A DNA stretch of 52,254 nt, counting the filler, from Sphacelaria rigidula (Eukaryota), in the NCBI GenBank assembly GCA_964200075.2. It is 4 parts of 4 records of this genome, joined end to end, with 100 filler letters (N's around TTAATTAATTAA, not from the genome) between each part and the next. Parts side by side here need not be neighbours in the genome. Positions count along the whole stretch, not along the records: positions 39,272 to 52,254 come from CAXNAA020003247.1; 3 more parts are not named here. One strand, written 5' to 3'. Shown here in pieces: positions 12,994-52,254 of this stretch; the first letter of the stretch is position 1, and every line of letters begins with the position of its first letter. The notes below the pieces were generated by a model that was not told the origin of the DNA, ran no database searches, and saw nothing but the letters and a program-made list of their open reading frames with translations. The position numbers and the translations under genes are program-made.

Positions 12994-13093
12994 NNNNNNN
13001 NNNNNNNNNNNNNNNNNNNNNNNNNNNNNNNNNNNNNTTAATTAATTAANNNNNNNNNNNNNNNNNNNNNNNNNNNNNNNNNNNNNNNNNNNN
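12994..13093. other. Artificial contig linker (44 N + TTAATTAATTAA + 44 N)
   Basis: Exactly 100 nt; the central 12-mer gives stops in all six frames; identical structure at three places. Confidence 0.97.
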
Positions 13094-26084: not shown

Positions 26085-26184
26085 NNNNNNNNNNNNNNNN
26101 NNNNNNNNNNNNNNNNNNNNNNNNNNNNTTAATTAATTAANNNNNNNNNNNNNNNNNNNNNNNNNNNNNNNNNNNNNNNNNNNN
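26085..26184. other. Artificial contig linker (44 N + TTAATTAATTAA + 44 N)
   Basis: Same 100-nt structure as 12994-13093. Confidence 0.97.
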
Positions 26185-39171: not shown

Positions 39172-39271
39172 NNNNNNNNNNNNNNNNNNNNNNNNNNNNN
39201 NNNNNNNNNNNNNNNTTAATTAATTAANNNNNNNNNNNNNNNNNNNNNNNNNNNNNNNNNNNNNNNNNNNN
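39172..39271. other. Artificial contig linker (44 N + TTAATTAATTAA + 44 N)
   Basis: Same 100-nt structure as 12994-13093. Confidence 0.97.
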
Positions 39272-40180
39272 GTCATTTGACCATTGACCACGCATCCCTT
39301 TCGAGACGTGCACTTTTTTTGGGGGGGGGGGGGGGGTGAAAAGGTATACAACGCCAAACAGGAAATGTGCGGCCTGCCGGTGCATACCCCTGTACCCATT
39401 CTTCATTCCACTATAGCGTGTGATGAACGCGGGTTAGTGGCGAGCCGGAAGTGTAGCTGTATTCCAACCGCGCCCCAGTTGTCTATTAGTATATTACACC
39501 AGTCGGTCGGGCAAATACGAGTTCGGTTCACGGCAAAGGCATTCTTTGTCTATTCCGAGAAGTATCTGATTTTCGCCGTTGAAAATGTGAAAGCGGGAGT
39601 AAGTGAAATAGCTCATTTGACGAGCGTCGACGCCGTGCGACCAGTGCTGGTCATGATCCAATCCGCTTTACCAAGTTGCACGGCTAGCACCAGGGGAGAT
39701 GGGTCAATACTTGGACATCACGAACACGTCCGGAGGAAGAGGAGGGGTTTTGACATCATGACAGAATAACAGAAGACAACGGACCCCGGTTGCACCAACA
39801 GGACGCTGGTTTAGCGTTGTCAGGACATGGTGATGACATGTTCGGTGTCATCACGATTGCACATTCCATGCCATGGCCGGTTCTGGCCTTGGCCTTCGCG
39901 TCCACCCGCTTTTTTCGGATCGTTTTTCGCTATAGGATACGGTCGTGCAGAGAGATAGCGCTGTACAAGCCACAGTAGATCCTCCTGTTTTGGTTTCCGC
40001 TAAGAACCGGAAAAGATCCAGTGGATTGTGACGGTCAACGTATATGCCACTTTCCCTCGATGGAGTTCCGCCCCGTTGTTCCGCTCGAGTTTGATTGACT
40101 ATTTGAATTAACAAATCGGACACGCCCGTTTTCATTGAGTTTTTTTGTGTTGACAAGTCCGTCCGTTTCGGTCGGGTGTG

Positions 40181-40216
<36 letters not shown>

Positions 40217-40235
40217 TGGTGATTCAATCGAGCAG

Positions 40236-40370
40236 CTATTTGAACAAGGCAGAGCGACGCTGGAGTGCCGAGGAATTCAACAACGATCCTCCGTTCCCGG
40301 CGCTGCGCGTGAGAGCGAGGAAGCAGATTGTGGCCGACGGCTTGTCGAAACCGCTGGAATGGTCGGACGG
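40236..40370 (+). CDS. trhO: TrhO/YceA (UPF0176) tRNA U34 hydroxylase-like protein, first exon present (5' exons not found in the contig)
   Basis: YLNKAERRWSAEEFNNDPPFPALRVRARKQIVADGLSKPLEWSD(G) matches the family motif 'pF..Lrvkvr..IVadGl'; CAG/GTGAG. Confidence 0.82.
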
Positions 40371-41689
40371 GTGAGGCTGCTCGACTGATGAAACATTGCT
40401 CACCACCTAGTTTTGACGCTCGCCTAAATATACCGTTGTTTTCGAAAACACTGTGCTTCCACGGTAATCTGCTTCCGTGGGGGGCTACGTTTGTGCTCTG
40501 AAATGTCGAGTCTAGTGTCGTGGATACTTCCTCTGTCCCATAAGAAAGGATCCTCATGATTGCACGGATCCTTAACGGTGTGACATTTGATTTTCTATCT
40601 TTTTTATTGCATTCGTCGGCGTTTTTTTAGCTAAAACCGACAGTCGTTCTACAACGTGGGTGCTTGACCCACGCAGCCGCGCGGCCGTGAAAAAGTAGAT
40701 CGGTCCAATAACGGCCATTTTTCGCTCGTTTTCCCAGGAAAGCATGAGAGACCCGGGAACACGAAAAATCGCGAAAATGGGCTAAAGAATGTAAAAATCG
40801 CGAAACCACCTTTGATTTTGGACACGTCCGTGATGTTAACCTACGCGCACCCCATCAACAGTTTGTTAGCATGTAATTACTACTGCTCGACGTGAAAACG
40901 TCCAAAATCGGTCAATGATGGGGTGTAAATGGATAAAAAACGGTCAAAATGGGGGTATATTTCGACATAATTTCAGTGATGAAAACAAGTTTTTTTTTTG
41001 TTTCTCTTCTTCATCAGCTTCGTCTGCGCCTTACCTCTCCAACGAAGCGAACCATAGGATGATCATCAACGTTGAAATACTCAAACGAATCAACGCCCAA
41101 AAGGACCTTTACTTATGGGACAGAGGAAGTATGCAAAGCATCCACGGGTTACGTGCCGTGGACAACAATCATTTCGTAAAAGGGAGCAGATGAGCTATTA
41201 ATAGCAAGCTTCCTGATGGTGTGGGGAAACCCGTCGTGGAAATCATACAGGGGAAAAAGATTGTAAGACCCGGAACCCTCCAGAGCGTCCTCTTCATGTT
41301 TGCCTTTTACGTTTGTGGATCTTGAGGAAGTGCTCACGTACGCAGCACTAAGCCGCCGGGTGCTTTGGGGCGATCGTATGGACGGAGTATGAAATGCCGG
41401 GGGAAAATGTTGTTTTTGGCGCTTTTGGCTTTTACTTTCCCCAAGGCTGTTGATATGCACAGTGAGGTTGTTTTTGCGAGCCTGGCTGTACACGTCGTTG
41501 CCCATGCGACCGTATCGAGGGCTCGTGGTGCTTGGCAACATGTGTGCCATGGAGCCACACTATTCAAAGCCTGCGAACTTATGCACGCGTTATATATATA
41601 TATATATATATATATTGTGGACTGAAGCCGGCCTTTTTCGGTGCTGGACCCTCTCGTGCCGTTTGTTTCCTCCGCCTCTGTGTCCTTGG

Positions 41690-42285
41690 TTGTGATGTGT
41701 TGATGGGACTGTTGCTGGTGGACGACTTGACTGCATGCTTTGTGTTGGATCCGGGATGCTGGGTATTGGATCCTTTGCTGGAAATCGGATACGTCATGCT
41801 GGGTGATGGATGTTTGATACCCACCGGCTCGATATTTGAATTCTCAACACTGGATACTGAACACCTGATGTTTGGATGCTGGTTATTGCCCACCTGATGC
41901 TTGGATGCCGGATATCGGACACTGGATGCTCATTGCTGGATGTTAATCCTGATTGCCGGGTACTGCGTTCGTTGATCCTGAATTATCCATTGCTGGGTGC
42001 TGGACCTAAATTGGGGATATATGGACAACTTCAACGCTGGTTATTGGGACGCCTGATGTGTGGATGCTGGATGCTGGATGCTGAACTTTGGATTCTCTTT
42101 GCCGCGTACTGGGCCCTGAACGTTGGATATGGAACATTGAATGTCGTAAAATTGGTCCCGCATTCTACATGCTGGCCACCCCGACTACTGGATATGGGAT
42201 CCTGAATACTGGATATTGGACATTGAATCCCGAATCCTGGATATTGATATTCGCCGCGAACGCTGGATATCGGATGCTGGATGAT
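41690..42285 (+). repeat. Degenerate heptamer-based (TGCTGGA-like) tandem repeat running up to a TrhO exon acceptor
   Basis: Many TGCTGGA/TACTGGA/TATTGGA variants, e.g. GGATGCTGGATGCTGGATGCTGAA at ~42062. Confidence 0.75.
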
Positions 42286-42294
42286 GACCGATAG

Positions 42295-42384
42295 GTCCGG
42301 GAAAGTGGGCAAAGGGCTTTCTCCCGAAGAATGGCATTCGATGCTAGACGAAGAAGGCGCCACCGTCATAGACTGCCGGAACTC
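42295..42384 (+). CDS. trhO: TrhO-like exon
   Basis: SGKVGKGLSPEEWHSMLDEEGATVIDCRN(S) matches 'G.yl.p.ew..ml......viD.RN'; phases fit on both sides. Confidence 0.9.
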
Positions 42385-44301
42385 GTGAGTCTTATACTAT
42401 ATGGACAAACAGTGCTGCCAGAATACCCCGTACAGTGAAAACGCCCCTTGGGTGTGCCGAATAACCCCCCGAGACCTCGACACCTCTGGTTCGGAGTAGT
42501 AGTAGTTACGGAGCAGTATTTTCAAAATAAACGCTCTGCGGACGCCGATAACGCCCCGGAGCTATCAAATGAGCCGAAATACCTTGAGTGTGCCCGGTAG
42601 TAGGCGGGCATGTGCTGAGCCAAACCCATTGTTGGTGCAAGGTGCTCCAGGCGTCCATGCTCGAGTGGTTTGTGGTCTGTTGCTGGCAGACATGGCTGAG
42701 TTCGCGCCAGTCGCTCACTTGCTCTGTGAAGTCAGTGCTTCCACTTGTAGTTTTGATCTACTGTAGCGGGCGGTCTAACTATTTAGGGGTGCTTTGGGCA
42801 TTTCCTCGCGTACTACTCTTCAATAGAACTCGAAACTGCTAGCGTCGGTAGATTTTGGTACAATAAATAGATCATCCTCGAAAAACAGTGCCCAAGTCAG
42901 TGTCATTTGGTGTTATCGGGCGAAACGAGTAAATACCCCGTCCATCAGGAGGGTGTTATTGACCGTGAAGCGCAGTTTTTCGGCCCGGGTGCAATGGGGA
43001 AGCAAAACTTATAAAAGATAAAACTGTACATTTCTTCACAAATATAATCGGGACAGGCTCGATCGACCGAACATACAGAAGAGTAAGAATTTGGGCTGAA
43101 ACGTGGCAGGACCTCCCGATGACCGGCCAGCTCGTAAGTCACTCAATATTGAGTACAGGTGATTTTCTTCTTGCAATGTGGAGCGGATACAAATATCTTC
43201 AGATCCCCGATGTGATAAGCAGTGGCAAGCGGAAAGAGCCCGAGAACATCGTCAATTACGAAAATATCACAAAATGCCACAAAACGAATAGTTAGACTGC
43301 CCACTACTGCAAGTTGATTTGGTTCAGCGTCTCACATGCAGCGATTCACTATGAATCCGGCCCTGGTCGCATGATGGAAACACCCAAGGCAAACGAATAA
43401 GGAACAGTCGCCGAAGAAAAGCACTATCATCAATGGGAAACCATCAAGAAACAAGAAAAGTCGTCCCGGAGGCGAGAATCCCGACCCCTAAATGACGGTC
43501 AAGTTTGACTAGCTCGCTCTTAGTGCTTACGTCGCGGATCTTGCGTCGTCGTTTTTTAACAGCTTTTTTTTTCAAAGCAGATGAAGAACGTTCTTGATTC
43601 TCCCGGGCGTAAAAAATAAAGAGAACTTTAGTCACTCATGGCTTGTGAACTAATGGGCTGCACTATCGAGCCGGTCGATTCCCCATGAGGAATGGGATGT
43701 GGGTTCCAACCTCGGTTAAGTCACACAATCTTGGAGTATTCCTCACATCATGCCCAGCCGTGGGCAGCGGCTATTATGTCGTGGATACACAAAATTCTAC
43801 TTCGCAGTGGACGAGGGAAAAGAACCGCTGAACCCTTCTCGCTTTCAGAAGAAACGCTAGCACCGAGTCAGGAAGGTGGAGTAGTAAAAATACAAAACGA
43901 AAAACTCCGGTGTCGACGTTTCTCCTGTGTGACCCCGGCTGATGCGTCCACACGTATCAAAAGGTGTAGACTGGCGTCTAGGATGGATGAGATGACAGCA
44001 CGCACGCGCGCACACACACACTAGTGCGTGTAGGTGTGTTTTCGCTCATTTTTTGTGTTGTTTGTTGACGGTTTGTAGTAGTCCGGACGTGCCAAAATAT
44101 AGACCGTTGAATATCGAGAGAGGTTGCGGCTAGAGTAATGCACAGTTACTTCCCTTGTTTCTCTTTTGAATGTGTAATCTTGCGTCTGGAATGTATTCGT
44201 TATTTTTGCTACTGTTGTTGGTATTTTGGTTTTTGTCAGTGTTGGTCGTTGGTCGTCGGTGGTGGCCGTTTCTGAACCAAACAACCGACGAAAAAACACA
44301 G

Positions 44302-44455
44302 GTACGAGAGCGAAGTGGGTACCTTCGAGAACGCAGTCCCTCTGGACACCAGCTTTTTCCGGGAGTCTTGGGGGGAACTGGAGAGGCTGGTGGGGAACGC
44401 CGATCGCAACGCTCCCATCATGACCTACTGCACCGGCGGCATCCGGTGCGTGAAG
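44302..44455 (+). CDS. trhO: TrhO-like exon with the rhodanese active-site loop
   Basis: YESEVGTFENAVPLDTSFFRES...IMTYCTGGIRCVK; YCTGGIRC is the UPF0176 signature. Confidence 0.95.
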
Positions 44456-44564
44456 GTAATACATGTGCTTTGAAAATAAGCCCTTCTGCGCCAGCCCCCC
44501 ATGAATGGACCTAGGTAGCGGTAGATCATTGGAGGTACGTGGACATAACCTGCTTTCATCAAGG

Positions 44565-45614
44565 CCAATTCTTATGAGAGCCGTTCGAAAAATAGTTTCG
44601 AAAAAAATGACGCCGTTTTGTGCCTGCCGCGATTTTGAATGGGGGAAAGATGAAAAGTTTTTGCGGCACAAAGTTGGAGTTGTACACATGTATGAAAATC
44701 GGCGTGATCCAGGATTTTTGGCTCATGTACAACAGCACCCAAAGAAGGCATAGCTGCTGCACAGCCATCACGTGACTTGTCCAACTTGATGTCGATAGCA
44801 TTTCGTTCTCACCCCAATTATGTACAGGCCGGACCAGTGGCAGTATAGCAACTCAGGCAATCTCCAGCATAGATCAAACCGTGTTCGTAGGGTGGTTCGA
44901 AAGCACTAAGGTCAGTACAAGAACAACTCAGCATAAACAATGGTGGGTGTGGGCACGTACTACATCGTTGGTTTTACAGACGGCACAACGCATCCAATAC
45001 ACCATGATGGTGACATGTCCGGCAGTGTGTGGACTTGTGTACCGACCGGGATACATCATCAGTACAGCACTTCACGCGATCCCCAGCGCAGATCAAATCG
45101 TCTTGCAGGGATCCAACGCACCAGACTAATGTGTCAGCTACAGCAAAGGAGTACTGGGTCTGCGCACCAAGGGCCTTGTTTGCTGCGAAAGACACGTACA
45201 GCATTTTCAACTTGGACAAGACAGCACCGCGTGCAGACTACACTTGTTGGGAATTACAAAACCAGTACAGTAGCTCGGGCAATTCCAGTAGAAATCAGAC
45301 AATTTTCGCGAAGTCCAAATACACCACAGTGCGGTGGCGGGTGCAGCACATGAGAGAGTCGTGAGTGTATGCTGTAGTACGGTAAAATATGGCATGTCCT
45401 ATATTTTGGTTCTTCGCCGAAATCGAACATGTCCTCGAGATTTCAAAATCGTCTCCCAATTTTCAACGCCGGGCCAAAGTTTAGGGGTCGTGTAAAAAAA
45501 TGGGGGTCACTTTTCTTCAAAATCGGTACGACTTTGTTCCATAAAAGTGGTTTTTGCTACCACCCGTTGAGAGTTTTCAATAATAGCACATTAAACGGCT
45601 CTCATAAGAATTGG
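44565..45614. mobile_element. Probable ~1.05 kb non-autonomous DNA transposon remnant in a TrhO intron
   Basis: 21 bp perfect inverted repeat CCAATTCTTATGAGAGCCGTT at 44565-44585 and 45594-45614; no TSD established. Confidence 0.55.
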
Positions 45615-46944
45615 TCTCAGCAGTACATATAGATCCAAGTGTTGGGGTAGTCGAAATACATGATACCTTGTCATCGGGGAGCGATTGTTGTGAGCAGAGC
45701 GGAGCTGCTAAGCTGCAGCGTTGGTGTTACTGGAGTTGAAGGTCCGCCAGTGGTATTGTTCCGAAAATAGGTCTTACGCGAAGGGCATGGGGGCGTTATT
45801 ATCCCTTCGGCTGCGAAGGTTTTCTGTGTATTCATCACAGGGGCTTTCGTGCTTTGGAATCAAGTCGCAGGCCCTCGCGTTGGCATGTACATGGAATGGA
45901 TGAAATATTATCATTCGTTACTTAGTAGTCGGAGGGTAGAGAGGAGGCTCGTTCTGGTATGATGGTGTTGGCTGTTGGAAAACGTTTCCGCAGGCTTTTT
46001 CCATTCTTCAGGGGAGGAAAAGTAAGCATCCGACTGTTTCATCAGTATTATACAGCAACAGTACCCCTGCATGTCTGTTTGCTGTCCCGAGATATGGTGC
46101 TAGACCCCCCACCCCCGTCCGAGCCTGGTCCGGCGAAAGGCCGGGGTGCAAGTTCCCGGCTCGGTAGGGATGCGAGATCAATAGTGTCATCACCACGGCA
46201 TGAGGAATCATGGGCACACCTCGCCCCCCGTTCCCACTCTCAGTAGTACATGCATATGATTGTTCCTGTGGCAAAGCAATAGAGGACAGAGCTCATTTAT
46301 TGGAAAAGTGTGTACCATACAAGAAGGAGTGGGAAGTGTTAGAGGGGGAAGTGTGGGGAGTAAACGAAGGTGACATGGAATCGTTTGATGAATTATAATA
46401 GGCAGTAGCGGGAAAACAACCGATATACTATGAGATAGGAACAGGAAGGGGACAAAATATGTGCGAAAGATTTTTGTGTAGTGTATAAAAAAACCGTATT
46501 GGACGCCCAAATATTGGAGGTGTCTCCATTAGGAGTGGGACTGGGGCCCCGTCTCGAAAGGGATGCGTGGTCAATGGTCGAACGACTAAGACACGCAAAC
46601 AGCGAGCTTGCCCCCCTTCCCCTTGCCTCCTCTCTCGTGGTAACGATGACATAGTGATGGGTACTACTAGCATCGAATCAACGAGCCCAAAAATGTGAAG
46701 TCATTGTAACATCGCATTGAAATCGAGATGGTAGCCCTCGCCTCAGAGGAAGCCTTTCCCCGTCATTCGTCGAAAGCCCTGAAAAAACAACATGGGCGTC
46801 CATACCATAGTAGACGAAGAAGGGTGCATCGACACGTAGAAAAAGCACATCGGGCAAAAAAGGAAGGACCTACTCGAGAAGTTGTCAGGGTGAAGCTTGT
46901 TCGTCAAATTCTCCCATGTATTTTGTTTTTGGTCCCCTCCACAG

Positions 46945-47058
46945 GTGGCTGCTTACCTCGAACAAGAAATGGGGTTCAAGAACGTGACACGCTTGGAGGG
47001 GGGAATCGTGTCGTACTCCAAGTTTGCCAAAGAACGGGCACTCGAATCTAAGTTCAAG
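46945..47058 (+). CDS. trhO: TrhO-like exon
   Basis: VAAYLEQEMGFKNVTRLEGGIVSYSKFAKERALESKFK matches 'GF.nV..LeGGI..Y'. Confidence 0.93.
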
Positions 47059-47236
47059 GTGAACCCTTTACTTGAGACACATCATGGCTGCAGCAGTGCG
47101 GCAGCTTGTAGTTTGCGAGCGGCGCCTCACATTCCTCTGTCATACTTTATGCGCGGCGCTCCTTGTCTTTTATCCCGCGGCAGTGTTGGTGGTTGTCGTT
47201 GGCGCCACTTTATTTCGTTTTCTTCAGTTCGGAGAG

Positions 47237-47550
47237 TATACTCATGGTCTTGCATGCCCTAGTCATAAGGCCATTGACCTCGCATTCCTACAAAGCCGGG
47301 ACGGAGCACGCCGGGTTTCGCCGTACCAGGCTCGCAACCAATCATCAAGCGGAAAGCGCCGTGATGCGTTCGGCGAGTTGCATGAAGGGTGACCTGCATC
47401 TTACTAAGATTGCCCGAACTGTACTGAGTAGCTTGCATATGAGTGACAGCCTCCAATGAGTTGCTTCATTTTCTGGTATCGCCACTTCCAGAGACAGCCA
47501 TGGGTTACACACTGCCCCCTTGGGTGTTTCACTATAGGTTTCGGCGAGGG
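47237..47550 (+). mobile_element. Partial copy of the ~500 bp dispersed element
   Basis: TACTCATGGTCTTGCATGCCCTAGTCATAAGGCCATTGACCTCGCATTCCTACAAAGCCGGG... Further fragments lie at 13094-13152 (-), ~33924-33965 (+) and ~46105-46222 (-). Confidence 0.8.
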
Positions 47551-47644
47551 AAGATTTGCGGATCATTGCCCCCCCCCCACACCCCACCCCCCCAGTCCAC
47601 CACCCCCCACCCCCACCACACGCACATAGACACGCCCCCGTCTT

Positions 47645-47654
47645 NNNNNNNNNN
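47645..47654. other. 10-N scaffold gap inside a poly-C tract
   Basis: 10 N flanked by C/G homopolymer-rich sequence. Confidence 0.9.
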
Positions 47655-48971
47655 CCCTGGTTGACCCCCCCCCCCCTTGGTGGTTTCCTTATAGGTTTCG
47701 GGGGGGGGAATTTTCGGGTCCTTTCCCCCCCCCCCCCCCCCCCCCACTCTCTCTCGTCCCCCGCGCTGTTGCTGTTGTTGCTGTTCGTGTGTTGCTGTTG
47801 GTGATCCCGATCGCAAGCTGTACCCATTTTTTGGAGTTTTGTTTTTTTGGTTATATTCATTAACTATTCGACCGAAGAGTTTTTATTTTATTTTCACTGG
47901 AGTATCCGGTGATGGTTGATTGAAATGACACGGGCGGTGAAAAACATTCGCATCGATTGGAGACATGAGCTCTCAAAGCTCACTGTGACCGCCGCTTACT
48001 GTCCCATCAACACTGCTTCTGTCTCACGTCGTGGTGCTACGTCAATCACTCTCCGGCAACATATTTTGTTACCTTTTCAAGGATCTGTTAGGTAGGGTAA
48101 AAGCCCGGGTATTCACTTTTCCTAACTTTGTGTTGCGATCTTCCGATCTCCAAACTCTACCCGAGTACCCATGTTGAAGAAGATTTCTATACCCTACCCA
48201 AGTTTCAGGTGCTTGAAGTACGATTCTCAAAATACGTTAATGTAGTCAATACCCCACCCATCACACCCAACAATGTTTTCGTGAGATTGAGAGTAAAAGG
48301 TTGATTTGAGTGTGGGTTTCATCATTCGCTGCAACATGACCAATTTTTCGTTCTCTCTGTGCTCCTCCTTGCCTGCAGCACTGGCGTGTGCTTTCAGCTT
48401 CACGTCGATATCCTACTCAGCTCCATCAAGGGCTTCAGTGTCAAGCTAATAGAGAAAGCCTATCGGGCGTCGTGGGGAGGGGCATTTCGGAACTGAACAT
48501 ATTCATTGATGAATTGGCCGCGTCTCACTCTCAATCGTATCTTCTGAGTCCGTATTGACTGATTGATTGATTGATTATCTCACATTAGCTGATTGCAACA
48601 ATCCAGCCCGTGGTCAGGAGCAGCAAAAATAGAACAGAATAATAATAATAAAAAAATACAAAAAAATAAATAAAGGAACAGAAAAAACGACAGAAGCAAC
48701 GGCCTCAGTAAGGAAAGAGAGGGGGCAGCGACAACAACAAAAAACACCACCGTATCTCAAGGAATCAACCCAATCGACTTCTCGTACAGTAGCTGCCTGA
48801 TGTCACAAAAGGCAGCCGTGAGTAAGATCCGCACTTGCTGCACCCCGTCTAAATTCGTTTGACACGTTCTGTTTGCAAGTCCCGGTTCGTGGTCGTGTTC
48901 GTGCATGTGTCCATGTGTCCGCTTTTTTGTTCCGGTCCGTAATCTGTACGTTGCGCGGGGTGGTCCTCCAG

Positions 48972-49117
48972 GGAGTGAACTACGTGTTCGATAAACGCAT
49001 GGGAGACAAAGTGACGGGTGATATGTTGTCCAAGTGCCACCAGTGCGGGACGCCGTGCGCGGACCACACCAACTGCGCCAATTCGTGTTGCCACGCCCGC
49101 TTTATACAGTGCGCCAG
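48972..49117 (+). CDS. trhO: TrhO-like exon, Cys-rich C-terminal domain
   Basis: GVNYVFDKRMGDKVTGDMLSKCHQCGTPCADHTNCANSCCHARFIQCA matches YceA 'G.NfVFDeRMG......CHQCG.PCd.HTNC.N..CH..FIQC'. Confidence 0.95.
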
Positions 49118-49559
49118 GTCAGCATGGCATCGGCGTCACGAGAACGATATCTTTGAAGTGACGGCTAAGCAGTTTGGGCTATGTGGTGATATATGGCTAC
49201 ATATGTCACACCGAGTAGCGTCTGCCCAACCTTGACCTTTTTTCACCCGATCCATTTTGTTTGTTCGTTATCATTGTTTTCAATATCCTCATACACGTTT
49301 GTCGTCGTTTGTTGTTTGTTTAGTCTCAGTTGTAGTTGCTGTTGTAATTGTAGTAGTTGCTGTCGTGGTCTGCGATAATGCCTCCTTTCGGGGTGTGATA
49401 TTCTGGTGTGTACACGCCATCAGTTTGGAATACAGTATCACACAAATATTCCGGAATATGTCACACGCGGGCTGAAAAGCATCTCTCGCGCCTTTATTCT
49501 GACAACCAATGCTCGCCAACAACAACATTTGAATAGCCCGACTGATGAATGTTTTGCAG

Positions 49560-49782
49560 CTGTGCAGCCGAGTACAACGCATGCTGCAGCCGGGGGTGCA
49601 TGGACCAAGAGTCTCGGCCAGACTTGAAGGAGTCGCTCATCCTAGCGGAAAGGGAAGCGATGGGATGGGGCGGAGCTATCTCGGCATCCATGGCTTCTCT
49701 GTCCGGGCTAGGAGCAGGGGAGGGAGTGGGCGCGGGTGAACGGGAACGGCGAGAATTGATGTGGCTCGTTTGGCCGTTTCAG
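49560..49782 (+). CDS. trhO: TrhO-like exon: end of the Cys-rich domain plus a Gly-rich linker (3' end uncertain)
   Basis: (S)CAAEYNACCSRGC matches 'C...y.gCCS..C'; candidate donor CAG|GTACAA after 49782, otherwise a stop at 49807-49809. Confidence 0.78.
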
Positions 49783-51409
49783 GTACAATGGACGAAACAA
49801 CAACACTGAATCCCTAGTATGCCCTGAGTGCGCGCGTGTTGAATTGGCATCGTTGAGTGATTGATGGATATCGATAGGTGAGAGTGCGTTAACGGGTCCG
49901 TTGAGAATCCGCCCGTGGTCACAGAAAGTCACAAGGTTATGTTTGTTTGGTCAATGAATGCTAGAAAGGAATAGATGGCTGGATGTATAGGAAATATAAA
50001 GATGAGTACGAGCTGGGCCAGCTTAAAAGCGGCGAAAAGTTGCTGACACCACAGCTCCCCCAGTTTCCCGAATGAACCCGATGTACGCATATCACTGTGA
50101 ACTGCAGACCCACCTGATGACGGAGGATTGCGTCGCTGTTCGATTGGCGTTGTACCGCCGATGACGTTATTGTACTGCATAGAGTAAAGGGTGCGCCTCA
50201 TATCGTTGGGCGATAGCGTGTCGGAGGGCTTTTTCTTCTTTCTATTGCGATGAGTTCACGTCAGCGATCACCCCGCACTGGGTATTTGTGGGGTGCAGCA
50301 GCGTCACGCAAAACGTTGCACGCACGGCCCGATTCGACGACCCTTGAGCTGAAATTTCACGGAGACCTTGTGCACCCAAGGAAATGATACGTCCCGTGAG
50401 CAGCTGCAGATTCTCATTTTTTTACTGGACTCATGACATTATCTTGCTCTTTCTGAAATTTCAAATCTCATAAATTCCTGCATTTTTTTCTTTTTTTCTT
50501 TGCTGCTCACGTCATATTCCTCATGTCGACCATAAAGAGCTGCTGTCATTATTTCAGCGTCCAACTCCCAACTTTACGGCGTGCGTCGCCTGAGCGAGAA
50601 AACCATCCATTGTTGGCTGACCCAGCTCGTGGTCAGATGGATGAGTGGACAGATGAATACATGAATAGCTAAATATGTTGACTGATTGTCGCACAGTTAT
50701 CATCAACCCATCCGCTACGAATTCAATTGTCGCCCCAACGTAGACGAATGTGCACAATGGAATCTATAGGGAACACTCCTCGGGTGTCCGTCTGTTGATG
50801 CTTTATCGGGTCGTAACGTTCATTGGAAGTAGTTTGTGAGTACGACCACACGGAAGTGGGAAATATTCCACCAGTGTCCGTCGAGGACTCGTCACCTTTT
50901 TCTTTTTTGCACAGGTTGCCGCTTTTTATTTTTTGAATGTTAAGTCGAACGGAATACGAATATGTTGATGGTACTATAGTGTATTTTCACGCATTTTTTC
51001 ATTTTCGGATGTCAAATTCATTGTGTTGTTATTTTCGTTTTCATGAAACGCGGGCGCTCACCTTACCAGGACCACTAGCAAAAGCCCGAACAAAGATTAC
51101 TTTGGTTTTCAAACTCTGGAAAATGACTCAGGGATCGTGGATCTCGGAATACACGTTGTGCTGTTGTCAGAGGAGGTCCTGTTTGTAGACAAGCCGGAGC
51201 TGCTCAGCTAGAGCACCGGGCTTATTGGCGTTGAAGGTCAGTTGGCAATATTAATTGTTCCGAGAAGAGGTCTGGTGCCCAAGGAGGAATTTGTTGAGAA
51301 GCCGCCTTTTCCCCGTTTTTTTTCTAAGTACCCCCAATGTTCGCTCTCTGTATTTTTTGTTTTTTGCCCGCATGTACCATCTCCGGAACACCCAAAAAAC
51401 TCAAAACAG

Positions 51410-51590
51410 GACCCTACCCTGAACTCGCTGTTCGATCGAGCGTTCGCCGAGTTTGCAGAAGCGAAATCTACCCAACAAGATGAGGCAGCAGCTGATGCGT
51501 TGGATTCGTCTCGGATGATCGGGATCGTATCTAGGTTGGGGGGAGTCAAGCGGGCCCTTGCTGTGGGGCTCGGCGCCGGGGGTACCGCTG
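51410..51590 (+). CDS. Probable further exon resembling the N-terminal part of a class I SAM-dependent O-methyltransferase
   Basis: A-rich CAG acceptor like others in this genome and a GTGCGT donor; DPTLNSLFDRAFAEF...SSRMIGIVSRLGGVKRALAVGLGAGGTA; phase-compatible with the donor at 49782. Confidence 0.55.
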
Positions 51591-52254
51591 GTGCGTTAGG
51601 TCATTATCCATCTTTCATAGCGATGAATCAAAAGTGCTTTGTATCCCTGTCACATGGTGCTCTCTTGTGCACTATTCCACGCACGCAGGCGCATATCTCG
51701 GGACAAAAAAGAATGTTTGATAATTTTCGCACCTTTATCGATGCCGACGAGAACTGCGCCCATGATACGCGTATCGGCGAAAACCCTGCGAATGAAGTTT
51801 CGGAGCAGCACGTGTCTGAGGCCTCTACTCTGCATGGCAGTACGGACTTTGTCATGACCATGAATTCGCCCTTTCCTGTCATGATCTACCCACAACTGTC
51901 ATATTCGTGTAATGAAAAGTCGTGATCCAGTGTTGGAGAATGAATGACGTGACGAAAAAATGCTCGTGAATGCCGACCATGGCTCAGGTTTCAACGTTTA
52001 CGAATCGCGCGGAACGAGTTTTTTTATGGGTAGAACTGTGTGACAAGATGTCATGATCGTCGTATGTTCGCTTTTTCGAGCATGAAAATCACGCATTCAG
52101 AGTGTGAGATGGTTGCATGACTGCTGTCATGGAGTATATGCAAGATTGTCAACAAAATTCGCGACTTGAAAGTCGTTCAACGGATTCGGGGGGACGGGGG
52201 GGGGGCGTACTTATTTGTTGCTTGCCTTAGTCGTTTGACCATTTACCACGCATC

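Follow-up and report, generated by a model that had tools for sequence, protein, structure and literature searches.

Two enzymes of wobble uridine modification, both described from bacteria, are among the closest known systems for a gene in the window examined here, i.e., the whole 52,254-nucleotide stretch of DNA from the brown alga Sphacelaria rigidula (assembly GCA_964200075.2). TrhO (YceA) of Escherichia coli is an O2-dependent hydroxylase of U34 in transfer RNA (tRNA), and TrhO carries a CXGGXR motif with the essential residues C200, T201, G203 and R205 (PMC6599085). TrmR (YrrM; PDB 5zw3/5zw4) of Bacillus subtilis, a stand-alone protein with a class I, catechol O-methyltransferase (COMT)-type fold, converts 5-hydroxyuridine (ho5U) to 5-methoxyuridine (mo5U). 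It is described as a homodimer that grips the backbone of the anticodon stem-loop, contacting S-adenosylmethionine (SAM) through M38, G62, S68, E85, R86, R90, D113, A114 and D133, Mg2+ through D133, D159 and N160, and the tRNA backbone through R86, R90, K136, R178 and R181 (Ryu et al. 2018, PMC6158493). A yceA(trhO)-trmR fusion was reported in Phytophthora sojae, P. ramorum and Phaeodactylum tricornutum (Sakai et al. 2019, PMC6599085), and it was the clue by which YceA was picked as the second tRNA hydroxylase, TrhO; according to the same article, trhO homologues are widespread in eukaryotes, which [quoted passage not shown] (xo5U, a uridine with a 5-oxy group).

The S. rigidula locus is most likely the middle of a nuclear gene orthologous to the TrhO-TrmR fusion known in stramenopiles. 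It lies on the contig that forms the last 12983 bases of the window (39272-52254) and extends past both contig ends, with the UPF0176_N exons upstream and the remainder of the C-terminal domain downstream. Mapping of P0002, a 351-amino-acid (aa) partial protein of 100% identity recorded under the name S. rigidula, onto the window gave seven exons, all in phase and separated by GT..AG introns of 0.4-2.5 kb, as follows:

40236-40370, + strand: exon 1, from the last part of UPF0176_N into the rhodanese part of TrhO (YLNKAERRW...LEWSDG), by P0002 mapping and open reading frames (ORFs)
42295-42384, + strand: exon 2, rhodanese domain (SGKVGKGLSPEEW...VIDCRNS), by P0002 mapping
44302-44455, + strand: exon 3, active-site loop CTGGIR of the rhodanese domain within YCTGGIRCVK, by P0002 mapping and ORFs
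46945-47058, + strand: exon 4, end of the rhodanese domain (VAAYLEQEMGF...ESKFK), by P0002 mapping and RNA-like contigs
48972-49117, + strand: exon 5, Cys-rich Rhodanese_C domain, by Pfam PF12368 and RNA-like joints
49560-49782, + strand: exon 6, Cys-rich remainder, Gly/Ala-rich linker and first half of a linker motif (LMWLVWPFQ), by P0002 mapping and RNA-like joints
49783-51409, + strand: intron 6, 1627 bases, GT..AG, skipped in the contigs of runs X1-X3 and contiguous in run X5
51410-51590, + strand: exon 7, second half of the linker motif (DPTLNSLFDRAF) and degenerate motif I (KRALAVGLGAGGTAG) of a TrmR-derived domain

The listing of stop-to-stop ORFs together with three-frame translation likewise contained the TrhO-like pieces, with YCTGGIRC in a frame-1 ORF at 44276-44470 and the Cys-rich piece in an ORF at 48822-49232. 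Both splice sites of intron 6, the donor that follows 49782 (CAG|GTACAA) and the acceptor ahead of 51410 (AAACAG|GAC), are of phase 0, and exon 7 ends at a phase-1 donor (G|GTGCGT). An in-frame stop at 49807-49809 lies inside intron 6, 25 bases past the donor, and the ORF with exon 7 has no Met ahead of motif I. The exon 7 intron position is common to the read-through ORFs P0006, P0007 and P0009 of other brown algae. The earlier note on this DNA had proposed six TrhO exons and a phase-0 join to the exon at 51410, and the mapping of P0002 returned the same coordinates and phases.

Sequencing runs, available as contigs instead of reads and aligned to 48800-52254, supported this join directly. 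Three runs (X1-X3) were treated as RNA-like because their depth was confined to exons and their GT..AG joints were absent from X5; depth was ~50-150 on exons 5, 6 and 7 and 0-5 over most of the introns, whereas the DNA-like run X5 had an even depth of 62-73 outside repeats. Contigs of all three RNA-like runs skip 1627 bases from 49779 to 51407, which with the cut moved by +3 is the GT..AG joint 49782/51410, at depths of 150.9, 146.7 and 123.1 (X1-X3), and also skip 442 bases with GT..AG at the joint 49114/49557 (with the cut moved by +3, 49117/49560). Neither joint occurs in any X5 contig, and intron 6 is covered contiguously in that run. Exons 5, 6 and 7 stand together on one X2 contig of 1984 nucleotides. 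The letters ahead of 48970 in RNA-like contigs match 47027-47056, the end of exon 4, and those behind 51592, translated by hand, give G-RNALRRLAEA, which matches the next part of the homologues (GRAGLRRLAEALGEGG). The 61-aa fragment P0035, which holds GRNALRRLAEALGEGGELVAAEES, is identical to these contig letters over those residues and is probably exon 8 of S. rigidula or of a close relative. The TrhO exons and the exon at 51410-51590 are part of one spliced transcript with one reading frame and TrhO at its N-terminal side. The junction that the earlier note had drawn from splice phases alone is spanned in three of three RNA-like runs of one study, and the outcomes it had named as refuting, i.e., transcripts ending at 49807-49809 or an exon 7 from another gene, were not seen.

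Contigs of X1 and X3 (49754-50119) cross the donor unspliced at a depth of 4.8-4.9, versus 109-151 for the spliced contigs; translation of such a minor, pre-mRNA-like form would terminate at 49807-49809, and its TrhO would lack the C-terminal domain. Within intron 6, at ~49960-50655, the summed depth of X5 rises to 137,781 versus ~62-73, with many short joints and loose ends, and that of the RNA-like runs to 100-775, suggesting that the intron harbours an element of high copy number.

The TrhO half of the S. rigidula protein is intact in its CTGGIR loop and Rhodanese_C domain. All four essential residues of the loop are kept in YCTGGIRCVK of exon 3, and the exon 5 ORF (window 48822-49235) matched Pfam Rhodanese_C (PF12368) at E 1.1e-15 (58.1 bits; cut-off 26.9). 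Pfam Rhodanese was weak on exon 4 alone (E 0.14) and reached ~1e-9 in full-length homologues, the exon 1 piece searched alone matched no Pfam family, and UPF0176_N (PF17773) is present in the homologues P0004, P0005 and P0010. E. coli TrhO likewise has CTGGIR with the four essential residues and a Rhodanese_C domain. Unlike it, the S. rigidula gene is eukaryotic, nuclear and interrupted by introns of ~2 kb, and the brown-alga homologues have N- and C-terminal extensions. One of these, the 1109-aa EukProt protein P0010, bears a thioredoxin domain (PF00085, E 1.6e-16) ~200 residues upstream of its TrhO part; this brown-alga-like gene model represents either two genes merged in annotation or a redox/tRNA enzyme of three parts. 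The mechanism of TrhO involves an active-site Cys, which makes this thioredoxin domain of interest.

The same architecture was found in relatives. Searched against longer proteins, the 60 residues of exon 7 gave ten matches among 1092 candidates, six of which have TrhO Pfam domains: P0002 itself and five proteins of 581-1109 aa, from Ectocarpus, Scytosiphon, Pylaiella and EukProt; the remaining four are short ORFs that extend beyond the exon into intron sequence. The complete Ectocarpus protein, used as the query, had 514 matches at E<=1e-10 among 8000 scored candidates, and tails were tallied in the best 120 of these 514. C[TS]GG[IV]RC is present in 120 of the 120, and 93 have a canonical tail, i.e., >50 bits versus a hidden Markov model (HMM) of 83 canonical tails, a count that is circular for the 83 tails from which the HMM was built and agrees with the precomputed PF01596 column. 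In 15 the tail is short or missing, in one it is 124 aa long and has no match, and in 11 it measures at least 150 aa and has no match. These 11 are five brown-alga proteins, Tribonema minus P0045, P0046, Chrysoparadoxa P0048 and P0054/P0067/P0070. Most of the listed proteins >600 aa (diatoms, red algae, Vitrella, Phaeothamnion) have PF01596/PF13578 behind the TrhO domains, and Joint Genome Institute names for such fused proteins read 'predicted sulfurtransferase/predicted O-methyltransferase YrrM'. The UPF0176 plus Methyltransf_3 architecture, which the earlier note had suggested seeking in stramenopile proteomes, is present in 93 of these 120 homologues, and the TrhO-TrmR fusion occurs broadly among red algae and among algae whose plastids are of the red type. 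A search for stand-alone TrmR-type proteins with the Phaeothamnion tail as the query (lengths 167-532) gave 297 matches, of which the best 120 are ~205-290 aa long and mostly without a name; those named are bacterial or carry the automatic 'caffeoyl-CoA O-methyltransferase/YrrM', and none is a named brown alga, which is no sign that brown algae lack such a protein.

Domain searches left the C-terminal domain of brown algae without a family. Pfam matched nothing in the exon 7 stretch (window 51212-51925) at E<=1 and gave no methyltransferase at E<=10 for the four full-length brown-alga proteins (P0004, P0005, P0008 and P0010). A profile of the four brown-alga domains found no methyltransferase among PDB sequences, with de novo TIM barrels and one weak deaminase match that were both taken as spurious; among 1.84 billion representatives, the profile had 36 matches, all of them fragments of 33-216 aa that resemble exon-sized ORFs of brown algae, and no methyltransferase, full-length protein or family of known function. 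Neither search (PDB, 1.84 billion representatives) linked the brown-alga domain directly to TrmR, and the HMM of canonical tails scored the degenerate tails at <=9.5 bits. The canonical tails themselves are readily placed: that of Vitrella P0049 matched family-3 O-methyltransferases in the PDB (best 3tr6, E 2e-31), TrmR/YrrM 5zw3 (E 2.8e-15) and a 'tRNA 5-hydroxyuridine methyltransferase' (8k1f, E 1.3e-14).

Three lines of comparison nevertheless show that the brown-alga domain is homologous to the canonical Methyltransf_3 (TrmR/CCoAOMT-class, the latter being caffeoyl-CoA O-methyltransferase) tail and derives from it. In hhalign, its alignment with the 83 canonical fused tails (93.2% probability, E 2.9e-7) has 133 columns and stretches from motif I as far as D-N. 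In MAFFT, brown-alga and canonical tails are collinear from the linker motif to the C-terminal ...GL.V.KWK. The linker motif itself, LMWLVWPFQ|DPTLN.LFDRAF, runs across the exon 6/7 junction, and W..P.PFQ...LN..FD stands before the canonical domain in a part of the canonical fusions, e.g., Phaeothamnion P0047 and Vitrella P0049, as it does in brown algae. Published and canonical fusions also have the same order of UPF0176_N, Rhodanese, Rhodanese_C, linker and O-methyltransferase-type domain.

Structure prediction was compatible with this ancestry. AlphaFold2 (AF2), given an alignment of 27 rows (four brown-alga domains, 15 fragments, four other degenerate tails and four canonical tails), modelled the P0004 domain with alternating strands and helices as a class I Rossmann-like COMT-type fold (predicted local distance difference test, pLDDT, 83.1; predicted template modelling score 0.82). 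With this model, Foldseek gave 498 matches at E<=0.001, the best being 8c9t_C (E 2.4e-9), and VIA-align superposed it on COMT 5p8w_C with Z 15.6 and a root-mean-square deviation of 2.6 A over 170 residues. Catechol and caffeoyl-CoA O-methyltransferases (5p8w, 8c9t, 5kva) are the best structural matches of the model; they differ from it in that identity is 11-18%, metal-binding and catalytic Lys positions are not conserved and the substrate is unrelated. The origin of the downstream exon in a Methyltransf_3-type domain, which the earlier note had judged by eye, found no echo in Pfam at E<=10 and was borne out by hhalign (93.2%), the collinear MAFFT alignment and the COMT-like model with its Foldseek matches.

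The catalytic signature is where the brown-alga domain departs from this family. Motif I in the window reads RALAVGLGAGGTAG, in which the acidic residue before the Gly-rich loop is missing and the loop is kept. Across the domain, canonical and brown-alga motifs compare as follows:

Motif I: canonical VLE[IL]GTFTGY, brown-alga ALAVGLG[SA]GG; acid lost, Gly loop kept
Met-bearing helix segment: present in canonical tails, deleted in brown algae; SAM-contacting Met lost
Strand 2: canonical ..VTcE.D, brown-alga ..VVEAS; Glu kept, following Arg lost
First metal motif: canonical FD.vF.D.DK, brown-alga FDVILLGGG; Asp and Lys lost
Second metal motif: canonical ..vvDN, brown-alga ..LCD[PS]; Asp kept, Asn lost

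In the homologues and fragments, i.e., outside the window, only one of the three ligands of the metal triad is kept, with D-x-D-K changed to GGG[GV] and D-N to D-P or D-S. The strand-2 acid equivalent to E85, which contacts the SAM ribose, is kept, as brown-alga GGEL.VVEAS aligns with canonical GG.VVTCE.D; P0035 reads ELVAAEES at this place. Among 43 brown-alga sequences and fragments, G[LM]G[SA]GG occurs in 22 and D[VI]I[LV][LI]GGG in 20, and an LE[IL]G, D[AG]DK or DN motif in none. By motif mapping, TrmR M38, S68, R86, D133, K136 and N160 have no brown-alga counterparts, and its post-I Glu and second metal Asp are apparently kept. Canonical fusions have a PF01596/PF13578 match, VLE[IL]GTFTGY, D-x-D-K and D-N; the brown-alga protein instead has no Pfam methyltransferase, and ALAVGLG[SA]GG, GGGG and D-P/S stand at those places. 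Compared with canonical tails, the N-terminal segment is shortened, and a large lineage-specific insert, long and of low complexity, stands between strands. The brown-alga domain is fused, whereas TrmR stands alone. Other degenerate lineages changed differently at the same sites, Tribonema with ALVVSAAAAGSS and VVSGAGDG and P0046 with VLLYINDSESG and HCTGFEN, a pattern expected of a domain freed from catalysis. Among four brown-alga species, pairwise identity is 65-71% in the C-terminal domain versus 77-86% in the TrhO half. The earlier note had cautioned that LAVG in place of LEIG could mean an inactive domain; the loss goes further, with GGGG for D-x-D-K, D-P/S for D-N and the Met segment gone. 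Of the one-protein route to mo5U that it had proposed, the fusion and the ancestry stand, by transcript and hhalign, and the second catalytic step is doubtful for this organism, most of its signature being lost.

To the question of whether the brown-alga domain is still a METHYLTRANSFERASE, our favoured answer, held with slightly better than even confidence, is that a working TrhO is joined to a conserved, degenerate and non-catalytic TrmR remnant. The TrhO half would use O2 to turn U34 into ho5U in tRNAs of bacterial type, most likely those of the plastid. The methyltransferase half would have decayed in brown algae and their nearest relatives, losing the acid of motif I, the segment near its N-terminus that forms the SAM lid, the Asn of D-N and, from D-x-D-K, both the Lys and the first metal Asp; with these gone, it has probably ceased to catalyse metal-assisted O-methylation of ho5U. 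The decayed domain seems to be kept under selection, as suggested by its identity among the four species and by new invariant Gly-rich loops. Its most plausible role may be that of a dimerisation or anticodon-stem-loop-binding module for TrhO, by analogy, since TrmR is itself a homodimer that grips this stem-loop. More broadly, we give about an even chance to the proposal that the TrmR half became a pseudo-methyltransferase in brown algae, Tribonema-like xanthophytes, Chrysoparadoxa and P0054/67/70, that organellar tRNAs there stop at ho5U34 or are finished by an unrelated enzyme, and that the domain persists as a tRNA-binding or dimerising partner of TrhO.

An active bifunctional enzyme, in which TrhO makes ho5U34 and the diverged fused domain methylates it with SAM to mo5U, appears unlikely to us, though several observations favour it: the domain is homologous to canonical TrmR-like tails with the fold kept, it is conserved at 65-71% identity, the Gly-rich motif I, the post-I Glu and one metal Asp are invariant in the brown-alga sequences that cover them, its substrate would be supplied by the fusion partner, and the metal need of TrmR is not proven (PMC6158493). 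Against it stand the loss of the motif I acid, of D and K in D-x-D-K, of N in D-N and of the Met-bearing N-terminal segment, the lack of any Pfam methyltransferase match at E<=10 in the four full-length brown-alga proteins, the score of <=9.5 bits with the canonical HMM, and the sister lineages (Tribonema P0045, P0046, P0054/67/70), which decayed differently at the same sites, as pseudoenzymes do. A new function, with the Gly-rich loops GLGSGG and LLGGG forming a site for another ligand or methyl acceptor in place of the ho5U-to-mo5U step, would agree with the strict conservation of these motifs (22 and 20 of the 43 sequences and fragments, the canonical variant in none) and with the large lineage-specific insert between strands. 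However, there is no positive evidence for any ligand, and the search of 1.84 billion representatives returned 36 short brown-alga-like fragments and no family of known function; we regard this as improbable. That exon 51410-51590 belongs to a downstream gene, the joined form being a product of read-through, assembly or annotation, is very improbable and already largely refuted. The unspliced donor-crossing contigs (depth 4.8-4.9), the in-frame stop 25 bases into the intron and the origin of the RNA-like runs in a single study could be quoted for it, but the splice is precise, in frame and GT..AG in three of three runs at depths of 123-151, equal to those of the neighbouring exons; the conserved linker motif, common to canonical fusions, straddles the junction; the exon 7 ORF has no Met ahead of motif I; and five other brown-alga gene models have the same architecture.

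Several points weigh against a working TrhO with a non-catalytic remnant, or against parts of that picture. Inactivity is deduced from motifs alone, and the acid of VVE, the Gly-rich motif I and the second Asp (LCD) are invariant, so that SAM binding may survive; strict conservation of both Gly-rich loops would also be unusual for a dead site. TrmR residues were placed on the canonical tails through their motifs and spacing, and then transferred to the brown-alga domain by hhalign/MAFFT, an indirect route that makes the correspondence an inference. That Mg2+ takes part in TrmR catalysis is put forward by its authors as a hypothesis and not as a shown requirement (PMC6158493). Sixty residues of the domain, with motif I only, lie inside the window, and the remaining motifs were taken from homologues and fragments. 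The AF2 model includes canonical rows and leans to the COMT fold, so that it shows compatibility and is no independent proof; AF2 with the four brown-alga sequences alone was unusable (pLDDT 38.6). X1-X3 are three runs of one study whose label 'RNA?' is a guess, no run being recorded as RNA. As for a plastid location, the N-termini discussed below were judged by eye and from homologues, as that of S. rigidula lies off the contig, and the fusion also occurs in plastid-less oomycetes, which warns against a plastid-only reading (PMC6599085).

In complete homologues, the N-terminus is hydrophobic and resembles a signal sequence, and Ala-Phe comes behind it (P0005 ...EAAAFVLSP, P0046 ...CVNAFIAPS, P0010 ...SGLAFLTP), which recalls the 'ASAFAP' motif described for plastid presequences (PMC4329603). 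The usual view, as given in one account (PMC11571807), is that four-codon boxes are read in chloroplasts by tRNAs whose U34 is unmodified. No xo5U-type modification is known to have been shown in a eukaryote, and Sakai et al. only suggest one (PMC6599085). At the transcript level, the S. rigidula locus is further evidence for expression of the xo5U pathway in eukaryotic algae. A TrhO-TrmR fusion is a textbook 'Rosetta stone', and its occurrence in a brown alga is ordinary because the fusion already served to identify TrhO. The decay would split the algae, with mo5U predicted in diatoms, red algae and Phaeothamnion and a stop at ho5U in brown algae and xanthophytes; if true, the pseudo-methyltransferase lineages would offer a natural test of the importance of the methyl group in mo5U.

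The fusion itself is not new, being already in print for stramenopiles and used there to discover TrhO (PMC6599085); what has not been described, in the papers searched, is the decay of the methyltransferase half in particular lineages. The supplements of that article (Supplementary Data 2, phylogenetic distribution) may list more eukaryotic fusions. The literature searched, with few subscription journals and with these supplements outside it, contained no description of the decay, no treatment of TrhO, YceA or UPF0176 in brown algae and no report of ho5U or mo5U in an algal plastid. Overall, the gene is a diverged member of a published fusion family, for which the proposed architecture and ancestry were right and the second step was probably too optimistic.

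The window consists of four pieces of ~13 kb, and genes on different pieces are not neighbours. The spacers between them, each made of N44, TTAATTAATTAA and N44, are as follows:

12994-13093: spacer between pieces
26085-26184: spacer between pieces
39172-39271: spacer between pieces

Several repeats were noted on the contig with the gene. (TA)n microsatellites lie at ~40170-40220, just upstream of exon 1, and at ~41590-41625, and read YIYIYI in translation. Intron 4 holds a C-rich low-complexity stretch at 47498-47745 with a gap of 10 N at 47645-47654, on whose two sides (47498-47588 and 47655-47745) stands a direct repeat of 91 nucleotides with 73% identity; the repeat search of the contig found one two-copy family only. 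Translated pieces resembling '(R)PLT.HPF/ LTIYHA' recur at the contig start (39281-39330) and in intron 4 at 46428-46700 (- strand) and 47112-47400. The last 91 bases (52164-52254) have a summed depth of ~3.4 million in X5 and ~150,000-180,000 in X1-X3, many contig joints fall at 52196 near the contig end, and the assembly was probably interrupted at each end of the contig by a short repeat of very high copy number.

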